From contig CBEVQO010000001.1 in assembly GCA_965552055.1 (NCBI GenBank), positions 256,001 through 320,000 on the forward strand: DNA of 64,000 bases. Reading direction: 5' to 3'. The position numbers and the translations under genes are program-made. This DNA comes from an uncultured bacterium (GTDB lineage: Bacteria > Hydrothermota > UBA3073 > NMUJ01 > CBEVQO01). This document shows, piece after piece, positions 1 through 43,350 of the stretch (its first letter is position 1; the number at the start of each line of letters is the position of its first letter). A model generated the notes under the pieces. That model had not been told where the DNA came from. It ran no database searches and worked only from the letters and a program-made list of their open reading frames with translations.

Positions 1-1207
1 AGTATTCCAATATTTTACCCATAGAGATTATATAATCCCATAAAACATAGGGAACCGAAAAAGTCTGATTTTTAATAATATAGTAATCGGCTCCAAATCG
101 TATTGCCTCCCTTATAAGTGCAAAATCATCACTTATACTAAGAACAAAAGCAGGAATCTCGGGATAAACCTCTGTAAGCTGATGCAAAATCTTGAGTCCA
201 TCGGGTTGACCGCTTTCAAGATACATGTCTACCAAGATAGCGTCAAATTTTTCTATATCCATCTCTTGGACTCCTGCATTTTCATAATTTTGAACTTTCT
301 TGCATGGCAAATATAAAACTTCCTTTTTCTCTTTCCCTTTTCGTTTCTCAATTTCCTCAAGAAGCCATCTAAAATCTTTGATTTTGCCATCAAAAATATA
401 AGTCTCAATCACAGGTTCAAATAGCAAAAATATCTCGTTTAATTTAACGTTCCCTAAGAAATTAAATCTTTCATCTATCTTTACTAAATCCTGGTCAGGT
501 CGGTTATCTATCAGAAGTAATTTAATATTACATCTTGTAAGCGTAAGCCTTATCAGCCCAGCAAACATGTTTGCTAATTGTATTAAAAAATTAGCTTCAC
601 CCTGTCCACTTGCATCGTGAACGATTTTTTCACGCCACTCTATTTCTGTATCAAAATACTTTCCCAGTTTGATGAAAACTTCCACCCACGATTTAGGTAT
701 CTTTCCCTCTAATTGAGATACACTTTGGATTCTTTCATATATTTTGTTATTTAAAATATTTTCTAAATTCTCCTTAACTTTCTCCAATTTCTCCCCTATG
801 AGATTTTTTGCATCTTCAATCATTAAATAATTAGGATTGAACGGAACACTTACATAACCTATAATCTCAGGAAATACTTTGCAGAAAAACCTGAATTCTT
901 TTGCTTTCTCATATCTCGGCTCTGCAAAAATTATTTTTTCATTTTTAGATGGGTTAGATTCAAACCCGATGATATAAATAGGAAGAGGATTAGTAAATAT
1001 TTCTTCTATAACTTTCTCAATTTTAATATCGTCATTTGAAATATCAACTTCCCCATTTTCTTTGCATAACCCTTTACATATTTTCTCTCCCAAATACAAA
1101 ATATAGCATTTGCTATTTTTTAGCCGTCCTGTTCTGTGCAAATATCGGCAGAATGATTTACATATTTCTTTAAAAATATTTCTTATGAAATAGTCTGAGT
1201 TCAACAT
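1..1207 (-). CDS. Receiver-domain protein, runs off the window edge (not in the ORF track)
   Basis: Hand translation from ATG 1207 (overlaps the upstream stop) is open to position 1: MLNSDYFIRN...KLLLIDN...FDAILVDMYLESGQPDGLKILHQLTEVYPEIPAFVLSISDDFALIREAIRFGADYYIIK, a REC fold with phosphoacceptor Asp, Ser and Lys. Confidence 0.85.
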   Translation of the reverse strand, partial: MLNSDYFIRNIFKEICKSFCRYLHRTGRLKNSKCYILYLGEKICKGLCKENGEVDISNDDIKIEKVIEEIFTNPLPIYIIGFESNPSKNEKIIFAEPRYEKAKEFRFFCKVFPEIIGYVSVPFNPNYLMIEDAKNLIGEKLEKVKENLENILNNKIYERIQSVSQLEGKIPKSWVEVFIKLGKYFDTEIEWREKIVHDASGQGEANFLIQLANMFAGLIRLTLTRCNIKLLLIDNRPDQDLVKIDERFNFLGNVKLNEIFLLFEPVIETYIFDGKIKDFRWLLEEIEKRKGKEKKEVLYLPCKKVQNYENAGVQEMDIEKFDAILVDMYLESGQPDGLKILHQLTEVYPEIPAFVLSISDDFALIREAIRFGADYYIIKNQTFSVPYVLWDYIISMGKILEY

Positions 1208-4200
1208 ATTACTTCGATATCCGGAAATGATTTACTGCACCACTCGTTCATAAATTCTTCTAATGTTGAATAACTATCCTGTGATCTTTGATCTTGATTA
1301 AATGGGCTTTGCACAATTATTTTACCTCCTTTACATGTAACTAAATAACAATCTTCAGATGGGATACCCCACTCTTTGATTATATCATTAATTTCTTTGT
1401 CTTCTTTTATTTTCTTACATAAATAACCGTCTTTTTCTAATTTTTTAATATCCTCCTCTTTAATATTTATTTCTTTATCAAAAATCAAAACTCTCTTCTT
1501 CTGGAAGAATTCTTTATTCAGTTCCTTTATTTCTTCTTCAAAACTTTTTACAAATTTAACATCTACATTTTTGCTCATTAAATAATTAATGCCTTTGTAT
1601 TTTATCCGTGGATTAGGGTCTGCACATCCTATATAAACTCTTTTTATGCCTTTCTCTATAATAAGGTCGGAACAGGATTTTTCTCCTTTAATATGTCTTG
1701 TGCAACAGGGCTCTAATGTGACATATAACTCACATTCTTTTAGGTTTATTTTCCTTTCTTCCGCTTTTCTAATTAAAATCTGTTCTGCATGAAGTTTTCC
1801 TTCCTTATGGGATTTAAGAATTACTTTTCCTTCTTTAACCAAAACTGCTCCTACTTTTGGATAATTTTTACCTTGAGAAATTATTGAGTATTCTGATTCC
1901 TTTACTGCTAATCTCATAAATTCTTTTATTTTATTTATATTGACCAAGTTCTCGAATATCTCACATATTACAGAAGCTGTAATGAGAATTAATATCCGTG
2001 GTAGCGGAGCCGATATTCGTTTTATCGGATTCACCTCGTCTTTATATTTTAATGCATTCAAAGATACATAAAATAGACTTATAAGATACTCCATTTCGTT
2101 TAATCCTGCTTCTTTCCCAAGAAGGTGAATTTTTTTCAAAAGCAAACATAAATCTTCTATATCTCTATTTCCACACCATACTTTATGAGCATGTCCTCTT
2201 GTTATTGGAGAAAAAAGTTTATACAGCAAATCTCTTTCGCACTCTATCCAGAACTTCACCGCTTCCTGCCATTTCTCATAAGTTCGTTCTCTATGCATAA
2301 TAGTATTATACAGAACATCGCTTATTATCATAAGTCTCAATTGTACCTCCATCTTTGTAAAATCATATGCCAGATGTCCCACCCCGGTATCGGCAAAATC
2401 TATTAACCAGAAATTATAACGATTATAAACATCTTTTGTCACAACAATATTCTCGGGCTGCAAATCGCCGTGAATCACTGAATAATGAAAAGTAATATTT
2501 TTTACAATTTCCCGAAACTCACTGTTTTTTTCAAACTTATGCTTGAACCAGTATATCGGATTTGGTAAAAATTCTCCAAAAATTTCATATCTATTTTCAT
2601 TTTCGTTTATCTTAATAAGTTCCTTTTCTTTTCCATTGTGTTCTTTAGGTATATCTTGATATTTACAAAACTCTTTTATTTTATTCTCAATTTCTTTAAT
2701 TTGCTTAATAAATGTTTTGTAAATCTTTGTAGCATCGGGAGCTTCATTTAATCTCAATGTTATCCTTTTACCCCTTCGTGCCAAAATGTGAGTGCATATT
2801 TCTCCCCGATTATCCTTAATTATAAAATTTGCACAAAATTTTAAATCTTTGTTTCTGTAATTGTTTGCTTTCTCCTCGTTATAAGGTTTTATTAACATTG
2901 CTTCAATCTCGTTTTCTTCTTTTTTTATTTTTTGCAACTCAAAAGTATAAATATCTCCTTCATCTTGCCATAATAAATCCATCTCTCCGTATGGCGGCAG
3001 AAGCTGGCGATAAAATTCCCGTATATCTTTATTTCCATTATTTTCTCCCACAATATTATGAATCGGTCTCAAAATTCTTCTATAAATCCATTCCACTGCG
3101 TTTTCAATTTTATTGAAATCCTTTTCTGACAAGACAAAATCTGTAAAACTCATTTGATTTTTAATTTCGTATGGAATACCTACCACGGTATAAGCAATCA
3201 AAGCTTTCTCCCTTAATGGAATAATAGGGTCTTCTATTCTTCCACAAAAATTATCGATGTAGCCTTTGATGTAAGTATCATAATTATATTTTTCTTTGTA
3301 TAATTTAGTTTTTGTATCTATTTTAATAATCCTGAATATTTCCCCTTTAGTTATCCCTTTTTCTTTTAATTGCAATCTAACGAGTCCGACCCATCCTCCG
3401 CTTTTACCGCTTGTAAATTTATAAATTATTTCTGGATTGCTTTCTTTACCAAACGCTTTTTTTGAAAACTTCATTAAAATTTCACGAATTTTATTCTCTT
3501 TGAACTCTTCTTCTTTTTCCTGTTTTTTTAAGACATAAAGGACTACCTCCTCAAGCGACCTTGGCAATTGATAAAAGAAATGTTTTTTAGGAAAATAGTA
3601 ATCTGCTCCTTCCCTAAAGGCAACATGTGCTATGTCTGCAAAATCTAATCGACTTAACATGATAATTAAAGGAAATTTATAAACTCCTCTAAATCTGGTC
3701 AAATAAGGCAATACTTTTTCTATACCCGCTAATTTGCTTCCATTGTTGGATTCGACAATATCCAAAAGTACAATGTCTATATCCGGAATCTTGTGAAGTA
3801 AATTTTCTATTTTCTTTTCGTCAAAAGTATCTTCTTTAAATACTCCTATTGGTTCTTCTTTAGATTTACAAAAAGTCCTGTTAAGGATCTCTTCTATTAT
3901 CTCAAACAATTTATTACCCTCAGTACTATTATCTTTTAGCTCATCATCTATTACGAGTATATTCCACCGAATATATTTATTACTTTTTATACTTTCTATT
4001 TCTCTTTCTTGAATCTTCGAAAAATCCCATTCTTTTTTGATAAAATAATCATGTCCATCCGTTTTCTTTTCTTGAATTGGAATAACCTTTTTTAATTCAC
4101 TTAGCCAGTCATTTTCACAAACATTTAATAACTTTATAAAATAAGAATTTACTCCATAAAAAGCATATTGCTTTTTAAAATTATCTGCGTTTTCCATGGT

Positions 4201-4509
4201 AAGTAAATAAATTTCTATTCCACATTCTTTGTTCAATGAATTAGAAATAATCTGTAAAATCCTATGAACAACATCTCTTGGTTCACCCAACTTATTAAGT
4301 TCTTCGACTCCTATTGCATCAATTATTATTTTATCTTCTATAACTGGATTCCTGAAGAAATCTTTAATACTTTTAATGGAGAAAGTGTGCTTTTCACCCA
4401 AACATTTATCATAATATCTGCGAAGAGATTCAGCCAGCTCTTTTACTTCTTCTTTTTCTTTACAGGAATGCAATAATAACATGCACTTTTTCATTTTGAC
4501 ATCTTCCAT
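1201..4509 (-). CDS. Fusion of REC domain, APH/kinase-like phosphotransferase and RibD-type Zn deaminase
   Basis: REC: ILVIDDE..IVLLDI..IMLS..GADYYFPK; kinase-like: GKSGG, IIKID, HGDLQPENI, LIDFAD; deaminase: PKVGAVLVK, HAE, LYVTLEPC..SC, DPNP. Confidence 0.85.
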   Translation of the reverse strand: MEDVKMKKCMLLLHSCKEKEEVKELAESLRRYYDKCLGEKHTFSIKSIKDFFRNPVIEDKIIIDAIGVEELNKLGEPRDVVHRILQIISNSLNKECGIEIYLLTMENADNFKKQYAFYGVNSYFIKLLNVCENDWLSELKKVIPIQEKKTDGHDYFIKKEWDFSKIQEREIESIKSNKYIRWNILVIDDELKDNSTEGNKLFEIIEEILNRTFCKSKEEPIGVFKEDTFDEKKIENLLHKIPDIDIVLLDIVESNNGSKLAGIEKVLPYLTRFRGVYKFPLIIMLSRLDFADIAHVAFREGADYYFPKKHFFYQLPRSLEEVVLYVLKKQEKEEEFKENKIREILMKFSKKAFGKESNPEIIYKFTSGKSGGWVGLVRLQLKEKGITKGEIFRIIKIDTKTKLYKEKYNYDTYIKGYIDNFCGRIEDPIIPLREKALIAYTVVGIPYEIKNQMSFTDFVLSEKDFNKIENAVEWIYRRILRPIHNIVGENNGNKDIREFYRQLLPPYGEMDLLWQDEGDIYTFELQKIKKEENEIEAMLIKPYNEEKANNYRNKDLKFCANFIIKDNRGEICTHILARRGKRITLRLNEAPDATKIYKTFIKQIKEIENKIKEFCKYQDIPKEHNGKEKELIKINENENRYEIFGEFLPNPIYWFKHKFEKNSEFREIVKNITFHYSVIHGDLQPENIVVTKDVYNRYNFWLIDFADTGVGHLAYDFTKMEVQLRLMIISDVLYNTIMHRERTYEKWQEAVKFWIECERDLLYKLFSPITRGHAHKVWCGNRDIEDLCLLLKKIHLLGKEAGLNEMEYLISLFYVSLNALKYKDEVNPIKRISAPLPRILILITASVICEIFENLVNINKIKEFMRLAVKESEYSIISQGKNYPKVGAVLVKEGKVILKSHKEGKLHAEQILIRKAEERKINLKECELYVTLEPCCTRHIKGEKSCSDLIIEKGIKRVYIGCADPNPRIKYKGINYLMSKNVDVKFVKSFEEEIKELNKEFFQKKRVLIFDKEINIKEEDIKKLEKDGYLCKKIKEDKEINDIIKEWGIPSEDCYLVTCKGGKIIVQSPFNQDQRSQDSYSTLEEFMNEWCSKSFPDIEVIC

Positions 4510-4512
4510 TTC

Positions 4513-4788
4513 TTAAAAATTCAATCCTATTACATCATCCACGAAATTTTCTTCTGAAAAAATGTAAGCAAGAACACCATGTTTATTTATTTTTACACAT
4601 TCCGGCGTATACTCCACCCCGCTCCTTCTGCCTTCAACCAATAAATTAAGCCGCATCAAGTTGCTTTCGGGGTCAAGAATATCCCTTCCCAGAATGGGAA
4701 AAGGTGCAGAATGAGGGTCGAGGAATATTCCGGCTTCGCCTTTGAATATTTTAAACTTTTCTCCGTTGCCGATTATCATAGTATCCAA
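4513..4788 (-). pseudogene. Truncated clan-AA (retropepsin-like) aspartyl protease
   Basis: Keeps C-terminal PILGRDIL but lacks the catalytic DTG; follows a small DUF5678-like gene as such proteases commonly do. Confidence 0.45.
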
Positions 4789-5036
4789 ATTTTGTCCCTG
4801 TATGGTATTTTTATTATAATAGCAAATTTTATTCTATCACCGAGTTTTTGTTTTAGCTCGTCGATAGTTTTCCCGCTGTGAATCTCATCTCCTATAATTG
4901 CGACAAATTTACCGCGGTATTTTTTCCATATTTCAGCAGAGTGTTTGGCAAAGGTCTCCATTGATTTTTTGCCTATTTCAAATATTTCTCTGGTCTCATG
5001 ATCTAACTTAATTTCCCCAACATACTTCATAGCCAT
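4776..5036 (-). CDS. Small DUF5678-like protein
   Basis: IWKKYRGKFVAIIGDEIHSGKTIDEL pattern, 86 aa. Confidence 0.6.
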   Translation of the reverse strand: MAMKYVGEIKLDHETREIFEIGKKSMETFAKHSAEIWKKYRGKFVAIIGDEIHSGKTIDELKQKLGDRIKFAIIIKIPYRDKIWIL

Positions 5037-5039: not shown

Positions 5040-5870
5040 TTACTGCCCCTTTTTATCCTCATTTCCTTTGACATCGCTCTTTCCTGAGTATTCCTTCTTG
5101 ATTTCTTCCAATTTCCGCATCACATTACAGAACCACTGATGAAAAGGATTTTGCTCAGGATTTTCTGCCCATTTTTTGAATTTATCAATATCGAATTCAT
5201 TGGGTAAACCCAAATTTATGTTATCACAATTAAACATTTGTAAAATCGCTTCCTTCTTATCATCCTCCAATTTCGCTCTCTCTATTTCTTTTCTGGCTTG
5301 ATCACATAAATTTTTAAACCTATCTTTGGGTGATGTATTTTTAAATGCCTCATTATAATATTCCTCTGCCCATTTTTCTTTCGTCTTGCCTTGTGGTGGT
5401 TTAAAATCATTCTTCAACACCTCACAAATCCCCATCAAATCAATATCCATTGGCAGAAAAAGGTGAGCAATGCGGTGGAGAAGGAGGGTAATTTGCTCTT
5501 TTACTTTATTTTTTTTTAATTCTTCAATCACACTATAATCGCATTTTTCTATTCTATTTACTATTTCCCTTTCTGTAGTATGGAATCCCAATATCTCGAC
5601 ATTAATGTTTTCTTGTTGAGCAACTTCACACAATTTATTATAATTTTTGTCTCCTTCTCCTTTATGAATCACTATTATGTTTATATTTTTGTCTGTTGCA
5701 AATTTCAGGTAATAAGGAAATGCGTCATGATTTCTTTCTCCTGCAATGAAAAACCAGTTACCAACTTGTTTATATTCAATTTGTTTGTTATCCAGTATTA
5801 CTACTTCGCTATCTACTTTTATCTCATTGAATGTATTTGTATGAATAACAAGGACTTTTTCGGCATTCAT
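5040..5870 (-). CDS. Uncharacterised protein; alpha/beta N-terminus and His-containing helix (possible phosphorelay partner)
   Basis: ATG 5870 overlaps the upstream stop (ATGA); LLHRIAHLFLPMDIDLMGI helix; function inferred. Confidence 0.55.
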   Translation of the reverse strand: MNAEKVLVIHTNTFNEIKVDSEVVILDNKQIEYKQVGNWFFIAGERNHDAFPYYLKFATDKNINIIVIHKGEGDKNYNKLCEVAQQENINVEILGFHTTEREIVNRIEKCDYSVIEELKKNKVKEQITLLLHRIAHLFLPMDIDLMGICEVLKNDFKPPQGKTKEKWAEEYYNEAFKNTSPKDRFKNLCDQARKEIERAKLEDDKKEAILQMFNCDNINLGLPNEFDIDKFKKWAENPEQNPFHQWFCNVMRKLEEIKKEYSGKSDVKGNEDKKGQ

Positions 5871-8323
5871 TTTAACACCCCCCAAAATACTCTATATTTT
5901 TTCTCAAAAAGATCATCGGGTTCAAGCCCTCTCATAAAAACAGACCTGTCTATCAGTCGGCTATTCGCCCACAAGCATTTCTGTAAAATATCGTGACTTA
6001 GGGGTCTTGCTCTACCTGTAACTATTCTTACATATGGAGGTAAATTATCGGGTTCGATTTCATATAAATCTTGTCTAACATCCAACATTCCCAAATGGAA
6101 TACTACACAATCGTAATTTTTTAAGTCAGGGAAACTGTCTTTATTTTCGGGAATGATAAAAATATTAATTTTTTCCAAATCTTTTAAACTTCCTTGAAAC
6201 TTATCATACAATTCATTATCGATTATTAAAATCTTGAAAGCCAAAATAGAACATATTTCTAAACCAACTATTTTCTTCTTGCAATCATCCGCATTTTTTA
6301 AATAACAATTCTCTTCCTTCCTCCCAAAATATCTACATATTCTATAAGTGGGGTCGTGTGAAAAGGTCAATTTTCTAACATTTTTGTGATTACATTCACG
6401 CGGATGACAAAAATGGAATTCTAAATTATTAGATTTTTTACAATCAATAAGCTGTTCTATTTTCCTCCAGTATTCCATTTGCCAGCCTTTTTTTTGACTA
6501 TTTTCACAGACTTCACAGAATTTTATTTCTATACCTCTATCTTTAAATATTTTATCCCACCATTTTTCAAGCAATAAACAATACTTTTCTTGTTCATTCT
6601 TACATTTACTATATTCATCTTCTTCAATGAAAATACTCCTTCTTTTAATCCAATTTAACCACTTTTTCCATTTATCGTCTAACTGTAGATTTTCCTCTTT
6701 CCCAATCCAGCATATTCTTTGTGGTAAAACACTCCAATTTTGTAAAATAAAGAAACTATCAGAAGGATTAACAACCAGAAAATCTGGTTTTACTTCTTTG
6801 CCTGCTTTAATTCTCTCAATTGTATTTTTATCTCCTTCACTCACATATTTTGCCAGTGGTATTTTAAATTCGTAACTAATGCCATTACCATCTTTAATAG
6901 CCTTTAATTCTCCACCTGCCAACCCCAGCGTTCGCCCGATTAACATATTTGCACATATACGCATCTCCTTTATTCCGGGGTTTTCGAAATCGGTTTTGCC
7001 CTGCTCATCAATTATTTTGCTATTTTCTATAATATTGTTTATTTTTCTTACTATATCACCACTATTATCAACAACATAATTGGATTTAATCCAAACGCGT
7101 GCAAACTTATTTTCTTTTTTAACGGAAAATTTTATGGTAGGGCCTCTTTCTTTATTTTTAGAAGGAGGTTTACAATGTTTCAATACATTTCTTACATAGT
7201 TTTCAAAAATAATGTAAATAGCATGGACGCCTATTTCTCCATATCCCGGGCTTACAATCAATTCATCGTCACATTCGGGTTTGTCTATTATAACAAGCTC
7301 CCTACCACTTGCCTTTGCAAAAAAATTTACAAAAAGTTTCACTCCTTCATCTGCTTTTTTATATCCTTCGACAGTTTGCAGATATTCTAGTGCATTTTTT
7401 AAATTAACCTTACCTTCACAAATAGGGTCGTATACATTGATGATATTAAGTAAAGCAGTTTTTTCATTTATGTATTGCAGATATTTTTCAACGCCATCTG
7501 GGTTATTTTGGAGTTCATTCTTCGTTAATCGGGGAATTACATGTGAGCCGTGATGATGTGTAAAATTTCGTATCATTATAGCGGCGACAGCCGAGCGGAG
7601 AGCATAGCGAGTTAGATTAAACTTTTCATAGCGATAAATTTCTAAAGAAAGTCTGTCTATAAAAAAAGGCAGTGCGAGTCTTCTTATTTCTTCCACTTGT
7701 TCTCGCATTAGACATTCATTAATTGCAAACTCTATACCTCCTACTCCTAGCTCTTTAAAGAATGGAATATGATAGATGTATAAAACTTCATTGGATTTAA
7801 TCTCAAGCCATTCTCTCAATTTGATAGTATAATAGAAGTACACATATTCAAAGTCCTCTTCCTTATACTTATCGAAATTTTCTTCAAAACCTAACCATTT
7901 AAGAAATTTTTCTACTTGATTTCTAAAATCTTCAATATCTTCAGGGAATTCAAAACAACGCACATCAGGAAATTTTTTAGCTTTACCTGATATCAGACAA
8001 ACAGGTTCTTTTAAATATTTAGGAGGTAGATAAAAGATACGCAAAAAACCAAAGCGTTTTTTAAGGGCACTTTTTATTACTTTTTCTGGTAGCCGTTTTC
8101 TCCTTAAATACTCTTCAAATTCTTTTTCAAATTTGATATTAAACGAAGATGTGTCTTCCTCCTTAAACTTGCCATTCTTAGTTCGTATAAAGTTTTTAGA
8201 ATAAGATAAGTCAAAATCTCCTTTTTCTTCATTAAACATAGCAAAAAAGAACGCTATAGAACACGCAATATTTTTCGACCCTAGTTCGCTTTGTAATCTT
8301 TCAATAAACGCTAACTCTTCCAT
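5867..8323 (-). CDS. Atypical cytoplasmic histidine kinase-like protein (GAF-like region, DHp-like helix, HATPase_c, degenerate receiver-like C-terminus)
   Basis: SAVAAIMIRNFTHHHGSHV (H-box-like), IFENYVRNVLKH (N-box), GIKEM, C-terminal KILIIDNE..VVFH..IVTGR; no transmembrane segment. Confidence 0.65.
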   Translation of the reverse strand: MEELAFIERLQSELGSKNIACSIAFFFAMFNEEKGDFDLSYSKNFIRTKNGKFKEEDTSSFNIKFEKEFEEYLRRKRLPEKVIKSALKKRFGFLRIFYLPPKYLKEPVCLISGKAKKFPDVRCFEFPEDIEDFRNQVEKFLKWLGFEENFDKYKEEDFEYVYFYYTIKLREWLEIKSNEVLYIYHIPFFKELGVGGIEFAINECLMREQVEEIRRLALPFFIDRLSLEIYRYEKFNLTRYALRSAVAAIMIRNFTHHHGSHVIPRLTKNELQNNPDGVEKYLQYINEKTALLNIINVYDPICEGKVNLKNALEYLQTVEGYKKADEGVKLFVNFFAKASGRELVIIDKPECDDELIVSPGYGEIGVHAIYIIFENYVRNVLKHCKPPSKNKERGPTIKFSVKKENKFARVWIKSNYVVDNSGDIVRKINNIIENSKIIDEQGKTDFENPGIKEMRICANMLIGRTLGLAGGELKAIKDGNGISYEFKIPLAKYVSEGDKNTIERIKAGKEVKPDFLVVNPSDSFFILQNWSVLPQRICWIGKEENLQLDDKWKKWLNWIKRRSIFIEEDEYSKCKNEQEKYCLLLEKWWDKIFKDRGIEIKFCEVCENSQKKGWQMEYWRKIEQLIDCKKSNNLEFHFCHPRECNHKNVRKLTFSHDPTYRICRYFGRKEENCYLKNADDCKKKIVGLEICSILAFKILIIDNELYDKFQGSLKDLEKINIFIIPENKDSFPDLKNYDCVVFHLGMLDVRQDLYEIEPDNLPPYVRIVTGRARPLSHDILQKCLWANSRLIDRSVFMRGLEPDDLFEKKYRVFWGVLK

Positions 8324-9851
8324 CTTTCTTCCTCCATCTTATTAAGCTTACCGTTTTTCTCCCAATAATAATATCTTTTGCCTCATAAATACTTATTCCA
8401 TTTCTAGACTCAGGAATTCCTTCTTTTTCAATAGTCCATCCATAATCTTTAAAAAGATTATAAATAATATAATCTCTAATAAGCCAATATTTTTCTTGTA
8501 ATTTAATCTCATCGTTCTCTTTTCTAAACACTTTCGGCTCATTTTCTGTCAAAAATTCAATTTTTCTTTTTATTTCCGCTAATTGATTATTTTTATTAGC
8601 ATATTCTTCTAATCTCTTTTCATTAATCCCTAAAGGTTTATTTAATCCTTTTAAGCCCATAATCATTTCTCTAACAAAAATTTCATGCTCATGCATTTTT
8701 CTATACCATCTTATAGGTAAAATGCCTGCTTCTATTCTTGCTTTATATTCTTCATATTCTGCAGCATTTTCAAAAATATAGCCATTGTAGTATTGATAAA
8801 TCCCTATTCCAATACCTATATTTCCGAGCGCACGGATCTTATATTCTTCATACTTAGTATAATTCTCTGGTTTTTTAACATACCAGTCTCCACTCCAATT
8901 TTGATAACCATTTTGTGTTAATTTTTCATGGATAAAAATTTTCGCTTTTATAAATCCATCTTCTGATAAGAAATCTTCTTTTCGGTATGTTTTTAATAAA
9001 ATTTCTCTATCCTTTTTGCGAGGAGCAAACCAAAGCTGATACCATGTGATGGAAGGCGGTCCTATTTCTAAAATTTTGTTAACATCCTCTCTAATAATTT
9101 CTGAATCTTGCTTAGGTAAACCATAAATCATATCTAAATTCCAATTGTTAAATTCATATTCCTCTATCCATTTAATTGTTTGCTCATAATTTTTGTTTGA
9201 CCTTCCCATTTCCTCCAACACATTCTTATTAAAAGTTTGAATACCAAAGCTCAAGCGTGATACTCCATATTTTTTCATAATTTCAAATTTCTTCTCGTTC
9301 ATAGTTTCTGGATGCAATTCCATTGCAATTTCTAAACCAGTTTTATTTATTTTTTTTCTTAGAGGCTCCACAATTTCTTCGAATAATTGTTTTAAATATT
9401 CTTCATCCAAAGCCGAAGGTGTTCCTCCACCGATATAAATTGATGTGATTTTATCCCAGTATTTAAAATATTCACTAAGTATTTCGAGTTCTTTCTTCAG
9501 TAGGTCAATATACTTTTTTTGAGTAGGATAATTTCCTTTTCTTTCTTTTCTCTCTTTTCTTTCTTCAGCTAGACTCCATTTTATAAAATAACAATATTTA
9601 CATTTTCGAGCACAAAATGGAATATGAATATAAAATGTTGTCTCTTGCGGTTTACTAAATATTTTCTCATATTCAAATGGCTCGAATTCTTTTTCGCCGA
9701 GTCGCTTTATTTGTGTTAACGGACCTACCGGAATATGAGAAAAAACAAAATCATATTCAAAAGGGCTGAAAGTGAAGCCCAGTTTCCTTAATTCATCGAT
9801 TTTTCGCTCCTTAAATTTATCTTCAATCTCTTTAGGCCAATTTTCTTTCAT
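8301..9851 (-). CDS. HemN/HemW-like radical SAM protein
   Basis: YIHIPFCARKCKYC (CX3CX2C), IYIGGGTPS, RLSFGIQTF, NLDMIYGLPKQ; ATG 9851 overlaps the upstream stop. Confidence 0.85.
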   Translation of the reverse strand: MKENWPKEIEDKFKERKIDELRKLGFTFSPFEYDFVFSHIPVGPLTQIKRLGEKEFEPFEYEKIFSKPQETTFYIHIPFCARKCKYCYFIKWSLAEERKERKERKGNYPTQKKYIDLLKKELEILSEYFKYWDKITSIYIGGGTPSALDEEYLKQLFEEIVEPLRKKINKTGLEIAMELHPETMNEKKFEIMKKYGVSRLSFGIQTFNKNVLEEMGRSNKNYEQTIKWIEEYEFNNWNLDMIYGLPKQDSEIIREDVNKILEIGPPSITWYQLWFAPRKKDREILLKTYRKEDFLSEDGFIKAKIFIHEKLTQNGYQNWSGDWYVKKPENYTKYEEYKIRALGNIGIGIGIYQYYNGYIFENAAEYEEYKARIEAGILPIRWYRKMHEHEIFVREMIMGLKGLNKPLGINEKRLEEYANKNNQLAEIKRKIEFLTENEPKVFRKENDEIKLQEKYWLIRDYIIYNLFKDYGWTIEKEGIPESRNGISIYEAKDIIIGRKTVSLIRWRKKDGRVSVY

Positions 9852-10951
9852 TTTACATGTACCCATTTACCTTTAGAGAATTCCTTTATTGCCAAATGAT
9901 AAAACACATTGCCATTCTTTTGAATTGAAAGTACTCCTAAAAGAGACGGATAATTTTTTACATTTTCTTTTGCTTTTTTAATGATATCTTTTCCTTTGGC
10001 ATTTATCGGTAAAGACTGCATTACCTTTTCTATTATTTTAGCAATTTCGTAAGCCATTAGAGCATCTAAATCCGGTTCTTTTTTAAATTTTTTATAATAT
10101 CTTTCTCTAAATGTAACATATTTTTTGGCATTTTTATCTATATTGAAATCGAGTGCATATACCCCTTCCATTGCTTCACCGGCTGTATTTATTACCTTAG
10201 GATACGCTATCTCGAAAGACCCTATAATAATTCCTTCGAATTTATTTTCTTTTAACGACTTTATTAAATTCCCCAGCACACTTCCATAACCTATAAGGAC
10301 AACCGCTGCTGGCCTGAAAGAAAGAGCTTTCGTGACTACTGACCTTATATCTGCTTTTTCTTTAGAGAAACTCACTTTTTTAATCTTATTATCTGTTAAT
10401 TTCTCAAATTCTTTTAAGAAACCCAATCCAAAGTCATCGTTTATATAAACTACACAAATCTCATTATATTTGATATTTCTTAGGGACAAAAATTTTAGTA
10501 TTTCTTTTGCTTGATTCTCCGGCGTAGGAATAAATTTAATAATATTATCGTTGTCCTCCGTTAACCCCGGAGCAGCAGCTATTGCAAATAATGCTTTATT
10601 ATCTTTTATTATAAGAGGCTTTAATGCATTACACACACTACTCATACACCCTATTATTATAGAAATATTCTTCGGTACAATAAATTGATGGTAGATTGAA
10701 AGTGCAGTTTTAGGATCGTTTTTACTATCATAAATAAATAACTCACATTTTAAAGGTGTCTTTTCCTTCCAAATTAGAATACCGTTTCTGTTACTTTCTC
10801 CAAATTCCGCAGCACTCCCCGTCAGTGGCAATATTGCTCCTATTTTTATTACTTTTTCTTCTTTCTTGCAGGATGTGAGCGTAAATGAAACAAGAAGAGC
10901 ACCTACCATTAATCCCGCCAATATCTTTTTTATTACACTCATACCTTTCAT
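9848..10951 (-). CDS. Lipoprotein solute-binding protein (LivJ/LivK-like, type I periplasmic binding fold)
   Basis: GGAGGTG SD before ATG 10951; lipobox LTSC; IKIGAILPLTG..G; DSKNDP; no ABC permease or ATPase nearby. Confidence 0.85.
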   Translation of the reverse strand: MKGMSVIKKILAGLMVGALLVSFTLTSCKKEEKVIKIGAILPLTGSAAEFGESNRNGILIWKEKTPLKCELFIYDSKNDPKTALSIYHQFIVPKNISIIIGCMSSVCNALKPLIIKDNKALFAIAAAPGLTEDNDNIIKFIPTPENQAKEILKFLSLRNIKYNEICVVYINDDFGLGFLKEFEKLTDNKIKKVSFSKEKADIRSVVTKALSFRPAAVVLIGYGSVLGNLIKSLKENKFEGIIIGSFEIAYPKVINTAGEAMEGVYALDFNIDKNAKKYVTFRERYYKKFKKEPDLDALMAYEIAKIIEKVMQSLPINAKGKDIIKKAKENVKNYPSLLGVLSIQKNGNVFYHLAIKEFSKGKWVHVK

Positions 10952-10999
10952 TTTACACCTCCCGTTTTTTATCTTTAATTCACCCATACCCTCATTAAT

Positions 11000-11026
11000 A
11001 ATATACAAACTCCGTGACTTTGTCAA
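11000..11026 (-). promoter_or_regulatory. Promoter of the signalling operon, TTGACA-N15-TATATT
   Basis: TGTCAA 11021-11026 and AATATA 11000-11005 on the + strand. Confidence 0.6.
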
Positions 11027-11123
11027 TAATTTTTTAAAATTCATAATCCATTGCCTTTTCTTCAAAAATATACCCTGCTCTCCTTTCATATCCTCAAATT
11101 TTGTGCGATATCCGCACATTGTT

Positions 11124-11246
11124 CTAAAAACGCACACTCCTTATTGTTTTTATCAGAAATTTAACAAATGCCAGAATAATGCAAATACACACCACTATTA
11201 TACAAAACAATATCACAATTTTGATTATGACCTTCAGCATCCACAT
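11124..11246 (-). CDS. 40-aa hydrophobic membrane peptide
   Basis: MWMLKVIIKIVILFCIIVVCICIILAFVKFLIKTIRSVRF; ATG 5 nt after a TTGACA-N15-TAAATT promoter. Confidence 0.5.
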   Translation of the reverse strand: MWMLKVIIKIVILFCIIVVCICIILAFVKFLIKTIRSVRF

Positions 11247-11323: not shown

Positions 11324-12817
11324 ATGCTTTTATTTTGTATTTTGCTATATATTTCGCAACATTATATGACAGGTCAAAAATATTTCTTCATTTACAAAAA
11401 CTATGAAAAAGCATTAATTGAGTTTCACAAAGCCCTCGATGAATCTTCATATGAGCTCAAAGGTGAAATCTTTCACTTTATAGGACTCTGCCATTTTTAT
11501 CTAAAACATTATGATAGTGCAATTGTGAATTTCAGCAAAACAATCGAGTATAATAAAGGTTGCGCAAGCGCTTACGCATATAGAGCAATTTGTTATTATC
11601 ACTTAAATGAAATTGAAAAAGCCAAAAATGACATTGATAAAGCTTTGAAAATGAAAAAAGTCCCTGTTTATTTCTATTTCAAAGGATTAATTTACGAAAA
11701 AATGAAAAATTATAAAGAAGCTCTGGACGCTTACAAAAATTATATTGATATGGAACCTTATGGTGAATATTGTGAAGAAGCCAGAAGAAGATTAAAGTGC
11801 ATTTTTGCAAAAATTAAAGAAGATAAAAAACCTCCAGAAATAATAATAACTTCGCAGTGGTATAATCCTCTAAAAAATGTTTACAGGATAAAATCGGATT
11901 CAATCCTTTTAGAAGGGTATGCCAAGGATGAGTCAGGGATAGATTATGTTATCATAAATGGTGAAAAGACAGGTGCCTCATTTAAAAAAGTTTTTCATAT
12001 TGATAACAAACTTACGATCTTTATAAAAGCAGTGGACAAAGCAGGAAATCAAAGTTTTAAAAAGTTAACCATAATAAAGGAGAAAGAAGGGAAAACAATT
12101 GATTTATGGCTATTCGCTATTGGCATCTCAAAGTATGCCAACCCTCATTACAATCTATTGGCGCCTGAAAATGATGTCAGAGAAATTGTGAAAATATTTA
12201 AATCAGAAACTTTGCTGTTTACGGAAGTTTTTGTAGAAACCTTATTAAACGAGAATGCGAATAGAAAAAATGTCTTAAGAAAAATGAAAGAATTTTTAAG
12301 TTCGGCTGGCGACGAAGATATTATTATTTTCTTCTTCTCTGGACATGGAGCGCGTTCAGGTAACCGAAGCGCTATGCAACTTTATGATGATTTATTAACC
12401 GCAGATGATATACAAAATGTTTTACAGAAATTATCATTTATTCCCCAGAAATGGATTTTCTTACTTGATTGTTGCTTCTCCGGCTGGATAATAAAAAGCA
12501 CGGAAGAAACAGAAGGAATAGTTGAAGAACTTATGGAAAGAATAACTGAATGTAAATTCAGATGTGTGCTTGCATCATCAAAACCAAATCAGATTTCAGT
12601 GTCACTGGGAAAACATGGTGCCTTTACTCTGGCACTTATTAAAGGACTTAAAGGCGAAGCAGATGAAGATAAAGATGGTATAATTACGATTCACGAATTG
12701 TGCAGATATGTATCTTATAAAGTGCCCATAATCACTCATGGATTACAGGAGCCTTATTTTAACATAAAGATTACAGGGACACAGATTGATGTCCCGATTT
12801 ATACTGTTAAATATTAA
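11324..12817 (+). CDS. TPR repeats, Ig-like linker and caspase-family (peptidase C14) domain
   Basis: TPR helices; AIGISKY, FFFSGHG (His), LDCCFSG (Cys), HGAFTLALIKGLKGEADEDKDGIITIHEL. Confidence 0.9.
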   Translation: MLLFCILLYISQHYMTGQKYFFIYKNYEKALIEFHKALDESSYELKGEIFHFIGLCHFYLKHYDSAIVNFSKTIEYNKGCASAYAYRAICYYHLNEIEKAKNDIDKALKMKKVPVYFYFKGLIYEKMKNYKEALDAYKNYIDMEPYGEYCEEARRRLKCIFAKIKEDKKPPEIIITSQWYNPLKNVYRIKSDSILLEGYAKDESGIDYVIINGEKTGASFKKVFHIDNKLTIFIKAVDKAGNQSFKKLTIIKEKEGKTIDLWLFAIGISKYANPHYNLLAPENDVREIVKIFKSETLLFTEVFVETLLNENANRKNVLRKMKEFLSSAGDEDIIIFFFSGHGARSGNRSAMQLYDDLLTADDIQNVLQKLSFIPQKWIFLLDCCFSGWIIKSTEETEGIVEELMERITECKFRCVLASSKPNQISVSLGKHGAFTLALIKGLKGEADEDKDGIITIHELCRYVSYKVPIITHGLQEPYFNIKITGTQIDVPIYTVKY

Positions 12818-15534
12818 ACTTTGACGCCCGCTTCTTTTAATTTGATTTGTATCATCGCTTTGACTCTTTCAGGTAAAGGATGCCAGTCAAATCCGTACTT
12901 TTGTTTATGTTCTTCCGCCCTCATTCGCAACTCCTTTTCTGTACCTTCTTCTTTATGAAGGTCGAAATATTCTTTTAACTCGTCTATATCCATTCCATTT
13001 ATTTTTTCTTCCAGTTTTTTCATTAAATCATCGTAAAAATTTCTTGCTTGCCTTATGAAATTTCCTTTGCCCTGTATTCTTCTTCCATCAAATTCGTACC
13101 AGTTACGGCTCCTCTTTACCACTCCTATTTCTATAAGAGTCCACAATAAATTTTCATCCACTTGTGCCAGACTCGGTAATATTTCGCGCATATTTGCCAC
13201 TATTTCTCTATCCATGACATCAAAATAGGAAGTCAAAGGCTCTAAAGGTTTGAATTTTTTTGCCTTAATCTCACTTTCGATTATTTCCATTGATTCTACT
13301 CTTTTTTCCCAATATGAATTAAAGTACTTCTCTAATTTCTCTTGTCCAAGCATTTCTATCTCTACACAAAATGTAAAATTGATAAACACCGCTCGATCTG
13401 TAATCCCTTCCTCTTGTTGTTCTTCAATTATATTATTTATCCTTCCTCCTGCCATTCTCTTTATATCCTGATTACCTGTTATCAAAAATTGTTCTTTGCG
13501 CGCACCTTGAGAGGTAAGCAAAAGTAAAGGGTCACTAACTCTATCGCAAATCTTACTTATCAGTTCGTTCATTTCTTTAGGATTTATTATTTTTTCTCTT
13601 ATAAGATCAGAAAGCGAAATATTTATGCTATCTATTTCTTTTTGTGCTCTCTCTTTCAACCATTGCTCACATTGTTGGGGTTCGTTCAGGAAAGTTTCTA
13701 AACTTTCACAAAAATCTCTCTTAATATCCTCGATTCTTCCTCTTATCTTTTTATTGAATATTTCTCTCAAATTAGCATCGCTCACTCCTATATATCTGAC
13801 ATTTTCGGCACGCAACATCTTTTCCCTCGCTCTTCCTCTTTCTAAATCGCATCTCTCTTTAATACTCCTTAACTTCGATTCTAATCTTCTATACTTTTCA
13901 CTTATAGGTGCTATTTCTTCCATTATTCTGCCCATCATTATATCGTATACTTCTTTACTTACCCGAGCTTCCAGACAATTTTGATGATATTGCTGTAATC
14001 TTCTGACAAAACTGGGGGCATATTTTTTAATTATTCTTCCTTTGAATAGTGTCTTCCTGCATTCCATAGCGATATTCGTGCGCATTCTTTCTAAGTCCTT
14101 TCTTTCTTGATGCACCCTTGGTTGTTTCCCTGAAAAATAATCCTGATACCTTCTTAAATATTCATTCGCTTTCTGCTCAAATCTTGCATGACATTCATTT
14201 AAAAATCTCAAAATGTCAGAAAGTGACCTATTACATATATTTAAAAAGCGACCTCTTATTTGGTTTATCACCTCATTCGCAATTTCATCCAATTCACTTT
14301 CTATTCTCCTCAATTGGTTCACAATATCCGAATTTACCTGTCTATAAACCTTTTCCATATCTGCTATTCCTTTTATTTCTCTTGAAGTAACAGCCGGAAT
14401 GGAAATCCTTTGGAATATTTCTTCAAACCTGTTTATAAAATTGTTAATTTCATTCTCATATGAAGTCGCTGTATCCGAAAGCAAATTTTCTATTGTTTTT
14501 ATTAAAAGTTCAAATTTAAGCCATTCATCTACCTCTTTTTTTGGATACTCAATTACTTCCGAATAAATCCCTCCCAATCTTTTCGAATAATCTATTGTGA
14601 TATCGCGATTTATCTGTGCATAAATTTGACCAAGTGAATCTTCGAGACCTGTGAGTAGCCGATAGATGACTTCAGAGATTATACCAAGGGCCGACAATCT
14701 TCTTCCTCCGAGGTCTACTTTGTTGTTAGAATTATCAAGTATAAACATAGTATGAAACAAAGGAGATGTAAAAACTCGAATGTTACCTCCTCCATAATCC
14801 ACCTGCCATGTTACATTTCTATTTCTATGAAAATAATTTACGTCTTTTAAAAATGCATAAAAATTGCCGATTGCACATTTTTCATCTTCTGTATATTCAA
14901 GACTTCCAGATAGAACTTCCGGCGCTATTATGAAAACCTTTAAGTAGTCAGGACCCACTTTATCACTTATCAGTCCAATTACATCAAGCAGAAGTCCACT
15001 GCCTGTTCCTCCGGATGCCGATGCAATGATACATACCATTTTTTTGCCATCAGAAACAGGAGCATTTGTTCTGGTTATATAGTTAGCAATAGTCTTTCGG
15101 TCAAAAACATGATCAATTTTTCTTTTTATTCCATCATTTACATTTTTAAAATTAAGGAATAAAGCAAGACGCCCTGCCTGACGAACCTGACCGACTCCTC
15201 CTCTCCTGGTTTCGTATGAAGGAACATAACCAGAAAACCACTTCGCAATGTGTCTTTCCTCACCTCGATGAACCCGGTTAATAATTTCCTCAACCTGTTG
15301 TTTATTTAAAACTGCCTGGATTGTGTCTATCGAAATTTCTCTTAAAAATTCGGGCTCGTCTATTTCCTGTTCAGAAGAAGTATCAATATGCAAAATGTCA
15401 ATAATGTCGGGCAATCCCGTTTCTCTGTTTAAATATTTCTCCGGAATGCGCTTCTGAATAAGATATTTCAAATATTTGCCCCCAAGCTTGCCTGTCCCCC
15501 CAAGCCCTACCACTAAAGTGGGAACCAATTTCAT
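12814..15534 (-). CDS. Tubulin/FtsZ-like GTPase domain with long helical C-terminus
   Basis: VVGLGGTG, GGVGQVRQAGRLAL, ASASGGTGSG signature loop; about 550 aa helical tail. Confidence 0.85.
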   Translation of the reverse strand: MKLVPTLVVGLGGTGKLGGKYLKYLIQKRIPEKYLNRETGLPDIIDILHIDTSSEQEIDEPEFLREISIDTIQAVLNKQQVEEIINRVHRGEERHIAKWFSGYVPSYETRRGGVGQVRQAGRLALFLNFKNVNDGIKRKIDHVFDRKTIANYITRTNAPVSDGKKMVCIIASASGGTGSGLLLDVIGLISDKVGPDYLKVFIIAPEVLSGSLEYTEDEKCAIGNFYAFLKDVNYFHRNRNVTWQVDYGGGNIRVFTSPLFHTMFILDNSNNKVDLGGRRLSALGIISEVIYRLLTGLEDSLGQIYAQINRDITIDYSKRLGGIYSEVIEYPKKEVDEWLKFELLIKTIENLLSDTATSYENEINNFINRFEEIFQRISIPAVTSREIKGIADMEKVYRQVNSDIVNQLRRIESELDEIANEVINQIRGRFLNICNRSLSDILRFLNECHARFEQKANEYLRRYQDYFSGKQPRVHQERKDLERMRTNIAMECRKTLFKGRIIKKYAPSFVRRLQQYHQNCLEARVSKEVYDIMMGRIMEEIAPISEKYRRLESKLRSIKERCDLERGRAREKMLRAENVRYIGVSDANLREIFNKKIRGRIEDIKRDFCESLETFLNEPQQCEQWLKERAQKEIDSINISLSDLIREKIINPKEMNELISKICDRVSDPLLLLTSQGARKEQFLITGNQDIKRMAGGRINNIIEEQQEEGITDRAVFINFTFCVEIEMLGQEKLEKYFNSYWEKRVESMEIIESEIKAKKFKPLEPLTSYFDVMDREIVANMREILPSLAQVDENLLWTLIEIGVVKRSRNWYEFDGRRIQGKGNFIRQARNFYDDLMKKLEEKINGMDIDELKEYFDLHKEEGTEKELRMRAEEHKQKYGFDWHPLPERVKAMIQIKLKEAGVKV

Positions 15535-16877
15535 GTTCCCTCCTCCTTCTCCTCCTCTAAAATTGATATGCTAATCCTACCTCTTACCGGGTCCACAACT
15601 GTTATCTCAAACTTATATCTGTTAAATTCTATTAATTTAGGATTGGTATCCCTTATTTCTATTTTATCTGTCTCCCGACCTTCATACCTCATTGCAGCTC
15701 CTTCACCCGAACTCACTTCAAAATAATGCTCAAATTTTTCTTCGTCAAGAAAATGCCAGATCGTAAAAGAAATCTTTTCGGGAATATTCCCCATAAATTG
15801 ACATCTTCTACCTGATTCAAATATACGGCATTTCCCTTCGGGTATCACAACTTCAATGTAATTTTTAGTTTCCCTGCTTTTACATATTCCACTGTAAACC
15901 ACAAAAATCACAATAACACCTGCAATAGCAAATAATACCCATATAGGGAAAGGTCGCTTACACAAAATTAATATTTGACCATCAGGTGGCTCGACTTCCA
16001 GCCTCACATTTTCCGCATTAAATGAGATACCAAGTTTGTACACACCCGTGTGTTTAAATCCTTTTAAGCGCAAAACAAATTCTTTTTCTTCTTTTTTACC
16101 AGTGCATATAAATGTATTCGGATAAATCTCAACTTCTGTTCCTTCGGGCAAATTTCCTTTCCATGATAAAAACACTTTCTTATTTTTCGATTTCCATGCC
16201 TCTCTTATCAAAATTTTAAATTTCCTTTCTACCAAACCTGCAGTCGGGTGTATTTTTATTTTCCTTGTTAATAATTTAATCTGAATAAAAGGAGGTATTC
16301 CTCCTGCCTGTGGTGGTATGTTATCCATTATTTCTGCGTGCGTCTGACTGGCAAACTCTTTAAGTCCCGGATGCTGAACTTTGCTCCCGTATTTTATAAG
16401 GTAAATGTAAGGTTTCACAAGCTGGAAATTTTCTTTGTAATATTTAATGATATCAGATGCAGTTACACTGGGAGACGCATTACCATAATCCGGCTCGCCA
16501 TCTGTCAAAATATATAACCTACATTCCCTGTCAGGATATGCCTGATAAAGCTCTTTTAGCCTTTTCAACGCAAGGTCTATCGCTTCCCACATCCTCGTAT
16601 AGCGCTGATTGAACTTCAAAGCGTCAATTTTTCTGCAAATCAAAGGTTTATTCTCATCGCTTATCACTTCATTGATGAATTCTTCATAAGAATCTCCAAA
16701 TTTTATTATTACTATTTTTTCGCCATTCTGTCGTGACAAAATATAATTTTTGAGGTCGCGCTTCACCAGGTAATCGAGTTTGCGCTGATGCATACTGCCC
16801 GATACATCCACAAGGAAAATATAATTTTGAAAATATGTTAACTTTTGCATGATAACTGCAAGTAAAATTATCCACAT
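15531..16877 (-). CDS. vWA-domain single-pass membrane protein
   Basis: MIDAS DVSGSM..T..LTDG; TM IWVLFAIAGVIVIFVVYSGI; AGGAGG SD; stop overlaps the tubulin-like ATG. Confidence 0.85.
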   Translation of the reverse strand: MWIILLAVIMQKLTYFQNYIFLVDVSGSMHQRKLDYLVKRDLKNYILSRQNGEKIVIIKFGDSYEEFINEVISDENKPLICRKIDALKFNQRYTRMWEAIDLALKRLKELYQAYPDRECRLYILTDGEPDYGNASPSVTASDIIKYYKENFQLVKPYIYLIKYGSKVQHPGLKEFASQTHAEIMDNIPPQAGGIPPFIQIKLLTRKIKIHPTAGLVERKFKILIREAWKSKNKKVFLSWKGNLPEGTEVEIYPNTFICTGKKEEKEFVLRLKGFKHTGVYKLGISFNAENVRLEVEPPDGQILILCKRPFPIWVLFAIAGVIVIFVVYSGICKSRETKNYIEVVIPEGKCRIFESGRRCQFMGNIPEKISFTIWHFLDEEKFEHYFEVSSGEGAAMRYEGRETDKIEIRDTNPKLIEFNRYKFEITVVDPVRGRISISILEEEKEEGT

Positions 16878-17003: not shown

Positions 17004-18044
17004 TTAATTTTCACAAATCTTACCATCATCTATCCACACATGCAATATTCCTTTATTTTGTGCCCATTGTTTCCACTTTGCAAAATTACTTTCTATATCA
17101 TTATTTATGATCTCTTCTTCCGCTTTTTCTTTTAACTTGTTAAATTTATCAAACATCTCCCCTGTAATTATCCTTTTTCCGCCATTTACTATTCGAAGAA
17201 AATCTGCTTTAAATAATTTCGTTTTTAAATCTTTGATTAATGGCTTCTCTTTTTCCATTTCATCAATCGTTACATATCCTCCTGTCTGATTCAATTTACT
17301 TTTTATATATCTAAAAAGTTCACTGATATCAAAAAAGAGCGGGGGAAATTCATACCAGCCCGGAGGTGGCACAGAAATATGCTTTTCCCTAAAATCATAT
17401 AAATTTAAATCAGAGGGATGTAAATATTGTATTTTTTCTTCAAAAACATAATACAATCTGGTTGAAGCAAGAGTAAAAGCCTCTGCAAGAAGCAGCGAAA
17501 GATTTATTTGATTGGAACCTCCTATCATATTCAACCATACTTCCTTCCTTTTTAAACCACATAAAGTTATGTAAACTTTCTCAAAACAATCATCAAAATC
17601 TTTGTAATTCACTTCTATTCCATAAAAATATTTTAATCCATAAGAATTATTTCCAAAATAAAATAAAAATTCGTCAATTTTTTCATTTACTCTCGAATTC
17701 TTTGATTTCTTTTTAAGTTCCATCAAAAGATTTTTAATTTCTTCGCTTAATCTTCGCAGGTATTCGAGAATAATGTGCGGGATGCTTTTTTGCAGTTGTG
17801 TCTTAAATAAATTATCGGTGATATTGCGAGGCGGCTCGGCTCCACTTAAGACTTCTTTGGAAGAAAAAATTATTAGACCTTCTACTTTCCCTTTTACTTT
17901 CTCACTCTCTTCTCCTGATTTAGCAAAAAATTTTAATGCTTTTTCATCTGTTATTGATTGCAACAATAATTTATATACATAAGTTAAAGGAACTGTTACA
18001 GCACCTGGATTTAATCCCAGGCCACTTACATGAAAAACTCCCAT
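17004..18044 (-). CDS. CRISPR-associated CARF-like protein with probable C-terminal winged helix
   Basis: HVSGLGLNPGAV (beta1 loop), WLNMIGGSNQINLSL (N-x-T/I-GG motif), LYYV..FPP; last gene of the csm operon. Confidence 0.6.
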   Translation of the reverse strand: MGVFHVSGLGLNPGAVTVPLTYVYKLLLQSITDEKALKFFAKSGEESEKVKGKVEGLIIFSSKEVLSGAEPPRNITDNLFKTQLQKSIPHIILEYLRRLSEEIKNLLMELKKKSKNSRVNEKIDEFLFYFGNNSYGLKYFYGIEVNYKDFDDCFEKVYITLCGLKRKEVWLNMIGGSNQINLSLLLAEAFTLASTRLYYVFEEKIQYLHPSDLNLYDFREKHISVPPPGWYEFPPLFFDISELFRYIKSKLNQTGGYVTIDEMEKEKPLIKDLKTKLFKADFLRIVNGGKRIITGEMFDKFNKLKEKAEEEIINNDIESNFAKWKQWAQNKGILHVWIDDGKICEN

Positions 18045-20783: not shown

Positions 20784-20791
20784 CGTTCCCC

Positions 20792-23663: not shown

Positions 23664-23668
23664 CATAA

Positions 23669-23695
23669 ATTATATGTCCACAGAAGGGTTGTCAA
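23669..23695 (-). promoter_or_regulatory. cas10 operon promoter TTGACA-N15-TATAAT, ATG 5 nt downstream
   Basis: Exact hexamers; no room for an SD. Confidence 0.75.
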
Positions 23696-23702
23696 GAAAA
23701 AA

Positions 23703-24632: not shown

Positions 24633-24729
24633 ATTTAAATTTAATGCAGATAAAAGAATGTCAAGATTTAAACATATTAGAAAAATTACAATTTTATGCA
24701 CAAAGAAAAACCTGTCCCTCCTATTAAGG

Positions 24730-28161: not shown

Positions 28162-28232
28162 CACAATATTATTAGCATTTTTTGCGAATGTCAATTATTT
28201 TTATTGACAAATTCTTTTCACAATTATAATAA

Positions 28233-43349: not shown

Positions 43350-43350
43350 A

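Follow-up and report, generated by a model that had tools for sequence, protein, structure and literature searches.

Some response regulators have enzymatic outputs, as in PleD, CheB and the HD-GYP proteins. APH-like kinases and receivers are described as effectors of ternary conflict systems in PMC7159879 and PMC8195603, and PMC7159879 reports that no histidine kinases were found among vWA-associated effectors. The TCAD9 family (PF19974) is named in a figure legend of PMC10910872, which links it to vWA-MoxR-VMAP ternary conflict systems. The string 'TCAD' has no match in the main text of PMC7159879, and a 2026 preprint leaves TCAD9 off its kinase list. Tubulin and vWA gene pairs occur in GAP1-N2 GTPase systems (PMC7159879, section 29). 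Deaminases of the RibD clade are usually fused to a reductase and have a conserved His in an insert (PMC3239186), and the anti-phage dCTP deaminase combines an N-terminal kinase domain with a C-terminal zinc deaminase in one chain (bioRxiv 10.1101/2021.04.26.441389). Here we analyse a gene that joins a receiver, a TCAD9 kinase and a RibD-derived deaminase, together with the gene cassette around it. It lies in a 64,000-nucleotide stretch of DNA (hereafter the window; contig CBEVQO010000001.1, positions 256,001 to 320,000) from an uncultured bacterium of the phylum Hydrothermota. The receiver-TCAD9 pairing is already catalogued, and the present protein adds a RibD-derived tail to it; the cassette appears to be undescribed. 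Our literature search, which covered main texts in part, turned up no description of the fusion or of the cassette and no functional test of a TCAD9 kinase, and the Lipocone preprint passages held nothing relevant. We give nearly an even chance to the reading that the protein serves a rare signalling cassette as one of its output enzymes, switched by phosphorylation, and that its substrate would be a free pyrimidine nucleoside or nucleotide.

The fusion gene occupies 1201..4509 of the window (minus strand) as a single open frame of 1102 amino acids (aa), with these domains:

3985..4509, minus strand: N-terminal domain, aa 1-175; its beta/alpha order resembles, at low confidence, that of a degenerate receiver
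3520..3984, minus strand: receiver domain, aa 176-330; D188/D189, phosphoacceptor D250, S286, K308
1945..3519, minus strand: TCAD9 / APH-fold kinase, aa 331-855; K396, E406, D682, N687, D704
1495..1944, minus strand: RibD-fold zinc deaminase, aa 856-1005; H907, E909, C935, C946; RibD substrate motifs absent
1204..1494, minus strand: C-terminal domain, aa 1006-1102; no homolog of this domain was found, and the homologous protein P0002 lacks it; weak receiver-like alignment

The initial annotation had proposed intact receiver, kinase-fold and deaminase motifs, and all of them were found in the sequence. The receiver has D188-D189-E190, D250, S286 and K308, so that the acidic pocket, phosphoacceptor Asp, Ser/Thr and Lys expected of a response regulator are all intact. 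In the kinase we found G368-K-S-G-G372, I395-K396, E406, H680-G-D-L-Q-P-E-N687 and I703-D-F705, the Lys, Glu, HGDxxxxN and DF of the APH/protein-kinase-like TCAD9 fold, with an insert of ~160 aa between the lobes. The deaminase has H907-A-E909 and P934-C935...C946; its zinc cysteines are spaced C-x10-C, as in P0002, and the annotated PC(x9)C is a miscount from C936. Pfam matched TCAD9 at 364-727 (78 bits, cut-off 40), APH at 671-719 and dCMP_cyt_deam_1 at 860-962 (61.6 bits, cut-off 25). It gave no match to the RibD_C reductase, as annotated, and none for the receiver region by itself; the family profile matched solved receivers at E ~1e-12. The annotation had not recognised the kinase as a catalogued TCAD9, a family in which receiver fusion is common.

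The domain parse that it had proposed was obtained from an AlphaFold2 model built on a 93-row alignment (mean predicted local distance difference test score, pLDDT, 77.7; predicted template modelling score 0.72); a fold predicted from the single sequence was unusable (pLDDT 33). Residues 340-855 resemble APH-type kinases (Z 18.8, root-mean-square deviation 3.9, 302 aligned), the neighbours being Rv3168 (Z 18.8), corramycin phosphotransferase (17.4), LxmK (17.2) and methylthioribose kinase (16.8). Residues 860-1008 resemble the RibD deaminase (Z 23.4, root-mean-square deviation 1.5, 142 aligned), and after RibD/Rib2 the next deaminase match was TadA (Z 18.1). Residues 1-175 and 1006-1102, which the annotation had passed over along with the cassette context, have low confidence in the model and were barely probed by the fold search; hhalign aligned them to receivers at only 3.5% and 5.6% probability, respectively. 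The counterpart of residues 1-175 is a separate 202-aa gene at the homologous locus L022 (E 9e-9), where a stop/start overlap in an A-rich run (9137-9153) separates the N-terminal domain from the remainder. A 197-aa gene of genome G129 was also considered as an equivalent of this domain, and the comparison did not support it.

We searched 1.84 billion representative proteins with a receiver-kinase profile and obtained 312 proteins at E<=0.001 (51 at 1e-10), of which 150 were listed; a word-index search with the whole protein recovered only itself. Among the 150 relatives listed, 117 stop no more than 260 residues beyond the HGD motif and 26 continue; the motif is missing in seven. A deaminase tail is present in two, our protein and P0002, and P0005 stops where the deaminase of our protein starts. 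Pfam scanning of the 24 other long-tailed relatives and of 18 short ones identified, in the former, a pyrimidine-nucleoside-phosphorylase fold (two), NUDIX (three), HD (five, two of them below cut-off), and one each of a calcineurin-like domain, class III cyclase, dual-specificity phosphatase, binding protein and STAND ATPase; nine tails had no match. Judged by their families, 14 of the 17 named tails, deaminases included, act on nucleosides or nucleotides. All five long tails among the 51 best matches are of this type, four of them deaminase or pyrimidine-phosphorylase. The deaminase is thus a detachable tail, and tails swap among relatives, in line with the annotated idea of a swappable effector; the proposed nucleoside or nucleotide substrate is likewise favoured by the other tails. 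By eye, the P0141 tail is CARF-like and those of P0107 and P0112 are HD-like, none with a Pfam match. P0013 matched a loose deaminase pattern and was dropped, having no Pfam deaminase and no tail.

The kinase and receiver residues are well kept in an alignment of 69 rows picked from 153 proteins: K396 in 69/69, E406, D682, N687 and D704 each in 68/69, and D250 in 48/69 (8 gaps). Receiver fusion recurs in TCAD9 Atlas clusters, at 17-62% of members. The receiver-kinase region was found in one of 272 genomes of the phylum and was absent from the viral contigs and the plasmids searched.

Judged by its sequence, the deaminase is a RibD derivative with a changed pocket: RibD motifs are lost, the trees are not firm on its clade and BLAST does not separate it from RibD. 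N-P, G-x-H and T-x-P-C are present in 19/19 aligned RibD rows, where the Asn precedes P-x-V-G and T-x-P-C ends the zinc insert, and our protein keeps none of the three. Asn-P-x-V-G and T-x-P-C are both lost also in P0002 and in three further deaminases without a reductase; our protein and these three have in common an Arg after the first zinc Cys. Trees place our protein beside these three without firm support (93/47; five together 56), and BLAST gave 85 bits against RibD rows and 82 against P0002. The three (L044:1450-3087, L052:436-2106, L072:463-1998) are RibD-like and ride a HATPase_c_4-HTH chassis that elsewhere bears Schlafen/AlbA_2, as at L028:5576-6946, where that domain sits in the deaminase slot. 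They are a candidate family of deaminase effectors.

It is very improbable that the deaminase serves riboflavin synthesis as a second, regulated RibD, even though its top sequence and fold matches are RibD and it is 38.6% identical to the RibD of this genome. The genome (97% complete) has five deaminase-family matches, one of which is a 361-aa frame with deaminase and reductase on contig C3. TIGR00326 (RibD), the best NCBIfam match of the 1102-aa protein, scores 84.6 bits against a cut-off of 156.35, and the operon has no riboflavin genes. The annotation had allowed that the deaminase might be the cell's RibD; since a full RibD is encoded on another contig and the RibD substrate motifs are missing, it is not.

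A misassembled fusion was the other escape that the annotation had allowed. We consider the chance of an assembly chimera or dead gene to be close to nil, although just two proteins among the 150 relatives listed have the fusion. P0002 (924 aa) has the same architecture of receiver, TCAD9 and deaminase at 35% identity and is encoded on the contig of L022, filed in a Woesearchaeota bin; an identical sequence is found in part on metagenome contig L021. A 2959 bp contig of run X1, which may be the source sample of the window, covers 1368-4326 with eight differences, and a 151 bp contig of run X3, from a second study, crosses the kinase-deaminase junction with none. GC content is even along the gene (0.28-0.31) and the catalytic residues are intact. 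Because P0002 shares the architecture and separately assembled contigs bridge the junctions, we regard the fusion as real. The L022 contig (1-14514) itself is possibly mis-binned or transferred: it carries a penicillin-binding transpeptidase and a membrane protein, and begins with a LivF fragment near a bacterial one, that of genome G048 (63% identical).

The fusion gene belongs to a cassette on the minus strand, in the order binding protein, HemN-like radical S-adenosylmethionine (SAM) enzyme, 818-aa protein, 281-aa protein, DUF5678 protein, 91-aa open reading frame (ORF), fusion gene, 844-aa receiver-HD protein, porin, 161-aa ORF, small receiver, LivH, 131-aa ORF, LivM, LivG, LivF and sigma-54 activator (Liv and sigma-54 labels by sequence inspection). 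From the binding protein to the activator, 15 of 16 junctions overlap or span at most 40 nucleotides. A promoter scan was at chance level (91 vs 80.5), and no RNA sample with the sequence was found. The cassette genes and neighbours in the window are as follows:

1..1207, minus strand: 5' part of the 844-aa receiver + HD-type hydrolase gene (C1:254673-257207); overlaps the stop of the fusion gene by 7 nucleotides
4513..4788, minus strand: 91-aa ORF, no family match
4776..5036, minus strand: 86-aa DUF5678 protein, family match
5040..5885, minus strand: 281-aa protein, 43-45% identical to the same-place gene in G129
5867..8323, minus strand: 818-aa divergent histidine-kinase-like protein (a label reasoned from weak sequence signs), the cassette marker; invariant H256, N-box-like E374, R378, N379
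8301..9866, minus strand: HemN-like radical SAM enzyme with CxxxCxxC at aa 85; occupies the slot that varies, after the binding protein and before the kinase-like gene
9848..11137, minus strand: LivJ-like periplasmic binding protein; opens the tightly packed run
11324..12817, plus strand: TPR + caspase-like peptidase, a neighbour on the strand opposite to the cassette
12814..15534, minus strand: Tubulin_2 protein; the cassettes of genome G224 and of L022 likewise have a flanking tubulin-like gene
15531..16877, minus strand: vWA protein upstream of the tubulin-like gene; the same in G224, and in L022 by inspection only

The ortholog of the 844-aa gene in G224 is 32% identical, with an HD-CE match below cut-off. 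BLAST gave no alignment between the L022 tubulin-like and vWA-like proteins and their counterparts in the window; in L022 the tubulin match falls short of the cut-off, and Pfam has none for the vWA-like gene. By inspection, the 91-aa/DUF5678 pair just upstream of the fusion gene is retropepsin-like, as are small ORFs at 43333-43752 and 49844-50236 of the window. Two similar radical SAM genes, which we take to be AmmeMemoRadiSam-like, lie near each other on opposite strands (48801-49832 and 51487-52563).

The 818-aa protein has no Pfam or NCBIfam match; an invariant His and N-box-like residues are seen in five orthologs. Five of the 272 phylum genomes have the gene; they belong to five families and carry different enzymes each time; no relatives were found by pattern scan of genome contigs, in viral contigs or in plasmids. 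A binding protein or ABC transporter lies beside it in four of the five genomes, and the gene preceding it differs: the HemN-like radical SAM enzyme here, an HMGL-like synthase with a methyltransferase in G129, a KamA-like radical SAM enzyme in G224, and a thiolase-like gene with a methyltransferase in G048, whose contig stops after the kinase-like gene. G129 keeps the cassette core at 41-70% identity (binding protein 30%) and has, downstream, a fusion of a DHO_dh-like flavoenzyme, 4Fe-4S domain and Maf pyrophosphatase (L026:12431-14425) and, by inspection, a receiver joined to a cyclase-like domain. G224 has a receiver-HD gene and, beside Tubulin_2 and vWA, a tandem pair of dCTP-deaminase-like genes (L039:9090-10026) with catalytic motifs that we take to be degenerate. 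G255 has an inositol-monophosphatase-like gene and a pyridoxal-phosphate decarboxylase fused to a receiver-like domain. Enzymes of the cassette thus swap between genomes, as tails do between relatives.

Defence-type neighbours were present at four of six loci read. In this genome (G000) the cassette lies between two CRISPR-cas loci with Csm/Cas10, Cas6 and two CRISPR arrays (at least 13 and at least 32 repeats): a Csm/Cas10 type III-A locus with a CARF gene at 17004-26385 of the window, and a Cmr-like locus (by inspection) with cas6 at C1:236235-247727. In G224 the neighbours are PDC-S02 and AlbA-HATPase; G255 has an E1-type gene and L022 an Hhe-like helicase. An RNA-ligase-family gene was seen at 27592-28194 of the window. 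Directly after the G255 cassette (L038:11981-14151) come ubiquitin-like/E2-like and JAB-like genes (both by inspection) and the E1-type gene, then conjugation-type and integrase-like genes.

Because switch, kinase and deaminase are combined in one protein, in a cassette with enzymes that vary by genome, the protein probably works under the control of a signal and changes nucleosides or nucleotides, possibly in defence. The binding protein, Liv-type transporter and variable enzyme (here the radical SAM protein) would supply a small-molecule cue. The 818-aa kinase-like protein would autophosphorylate on H256 and pass the phosphate to D250 and to the other cassette receivers, and phosphorylation would free the kinase and deaminase. 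The kinase may then phosphorylate a small hydroxylated substrate, and the deaminase may remove an amino group in a cytosine-to-uracil type of reaction, presumably with zinc on H907, C935 and C946 and with E909 as proton shuttle, as in its family. The neighbouring receiver-HD enzyme would strip phosphates, and the net effect would be a nucleotide pool drained or altered under stress or infection. This reading is supported by the conserved receiver and kinase residues, by a fold closest to small-molecule kinases, by the predominance of nucleoside or nucleotide enzymes among the named tails, by the tight packing of the cassette genes, by the defence-type neighbours at four of six loci, and by the pyrimidine or nucleotide enzymes of other cassette copies, namely the DHO_dh-4Fe-4S-Maf fusion of G129 and the dCTP-deaminase-like pair and receiver-HD gene of G224.

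Several observations weigh against it. The payloads of G048 and G255 are not nucleotide enzymes, LxmK among the fold neighbours is, we assume, a peptide kinase, and the substrate is one that we infer from sequence. The kinase evidently works without a deaminase, given that 117 of the 150 relatives listed are tail-less, and P0002, the only other deaminase homolog, has lost the glycine-rich loop of the kinase; the two active sites therefore need not act in series, and the coupled two-step reaction of the initial annotation is not borne out. For the 818-aa protein, language-model similarity to HWE/HisKA_2 kinases is only 0.85, no PDB sequence matches, and hhalign covered the N-box only (4.6%); nor was the gene found in the small bin of L022. 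Modelling the kinase-like core in complex with the receiver gave a score of 0.00, which speaks neither for nor against the reading. By inspection there are no defence genes beside the G129 cassette or on the short G048 contig, and none of the cassette proteins scanned is covered by a PADLOC family.

In a rather unlikely alternative, the receiver-kinase relays a signal by phosphorylating a protein or peptide, and the deaminase, a toxin-like tail that works on its own, edits RNA or single-stranded DNA once switched. The weak grouping with the HATPase_c_4-HTH deaminases at three loci, with Schlafen/AlbA_2 on another such protein, would fit this, as would the shared Arg, the shared loss of N-P and T-x-P-C, the dual-specificity phosphatase tail of one relative and the TadA fold match. 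That grouping, however, is unstarred in the trees, BLAST scores RibD no lower than P0002, and the other tails mostly act on free nucleotides. It is unlikely, too, that the cassette serves to produce a small metabolite, to move it out of or into the cell and to sense it, as a signal specific to the strain or an antimetabolite, with kinase and deaminase as receiver-switched tailoring or self-protection and no phage defence. The binding protein or transporter in four of five genomes, the biosynthetic-type enzyme that differs each time before the kinase-like gene and the antibiotic phosphotransferases among the fold neighbours agree with such a role, but the loci share no pathway logic and four of six have defence-type neighbours. 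Because several cassette enzymes are receiver-fused, they fit better as outputs than as a pathway. On a wider scale, it is possible, though doubtful, that the cassettes represent an undescribed class of polymorphic signalling system, in which a divergent histidine kinase, accompanied in each genome by a different enzyme for making a metabolite and by a binding protein or ABC transporter, would phosphorylate a set of enzymes fused to receivers. These enzymes, with our fusion protein as one interchangeable output, would break down or remodel nucleotides. If true, two-component control would extend to immunity that targets nucleotides, or to chemical signalling among kin, and a RibD-derived deaminase would have been taken over for a new substrate.

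TCAD9 kinases are widespread, and one that is naturally joined, behind its intact receiver, to a tractable zinc deaminase offers a direct assay of family function and switching; the altered substrate motifs may also signify a new deaminase activity. Our protein is like TCAD9 in its above-cut-off match, APH-fold catalytic residues and recurrent receiver fusion, and unlike the TCAD9 ternary systems in the histidine-kinase-like gene of the operon and in the deaminase tail. A vWA gene is present as in vWA-MoxR-VMAP systems, and the 14 + 4 ORFs scanned gave no MoxR or VMAP match. As in GAP1-N2 systems, vWA and Tubulin_2 genes adjoin the cassette in G000 and G224, and a tubulin-like gene does so in L022; lineage and the coupling to a receiver cassette differ, and neither GAP1 nor DO-GTPase was matched among the neighbouring ORFs scanned at the locus. 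With RibD/RibG the deaminase shares the fold, the HxE and PC..C zinc ligands and the DPNP motif, whereas it lacks the reductase, has altered substrate motifs and has C-x10-C with an Arg replacing the His/Thr insert. The parallel with dCTP depletion drawn by the initial annotation holds insofar as kinase and zinc deaminase are in one chain, and is otherwise an analogy, since the PADLOC dCTPase family matches only at 906-959 (54 residues, 19 bits, E 1.2e-4). The anti-phage enzyme, in which the kinase domain is reportedly of the P-loop type, contrasts with the APH kinase fold, RibD-type deaminase, receiver switch and large cassette found here. Finally, the protein resembles enzymatic-output response regulators in having an intact receiver fused to enzyme domains beside a kinase-like gene; it differs from them in that an APH-fold kinase and a deaminase form the output, that several receiver-like domains are degenerate, and that the enzymes swap between genomes.

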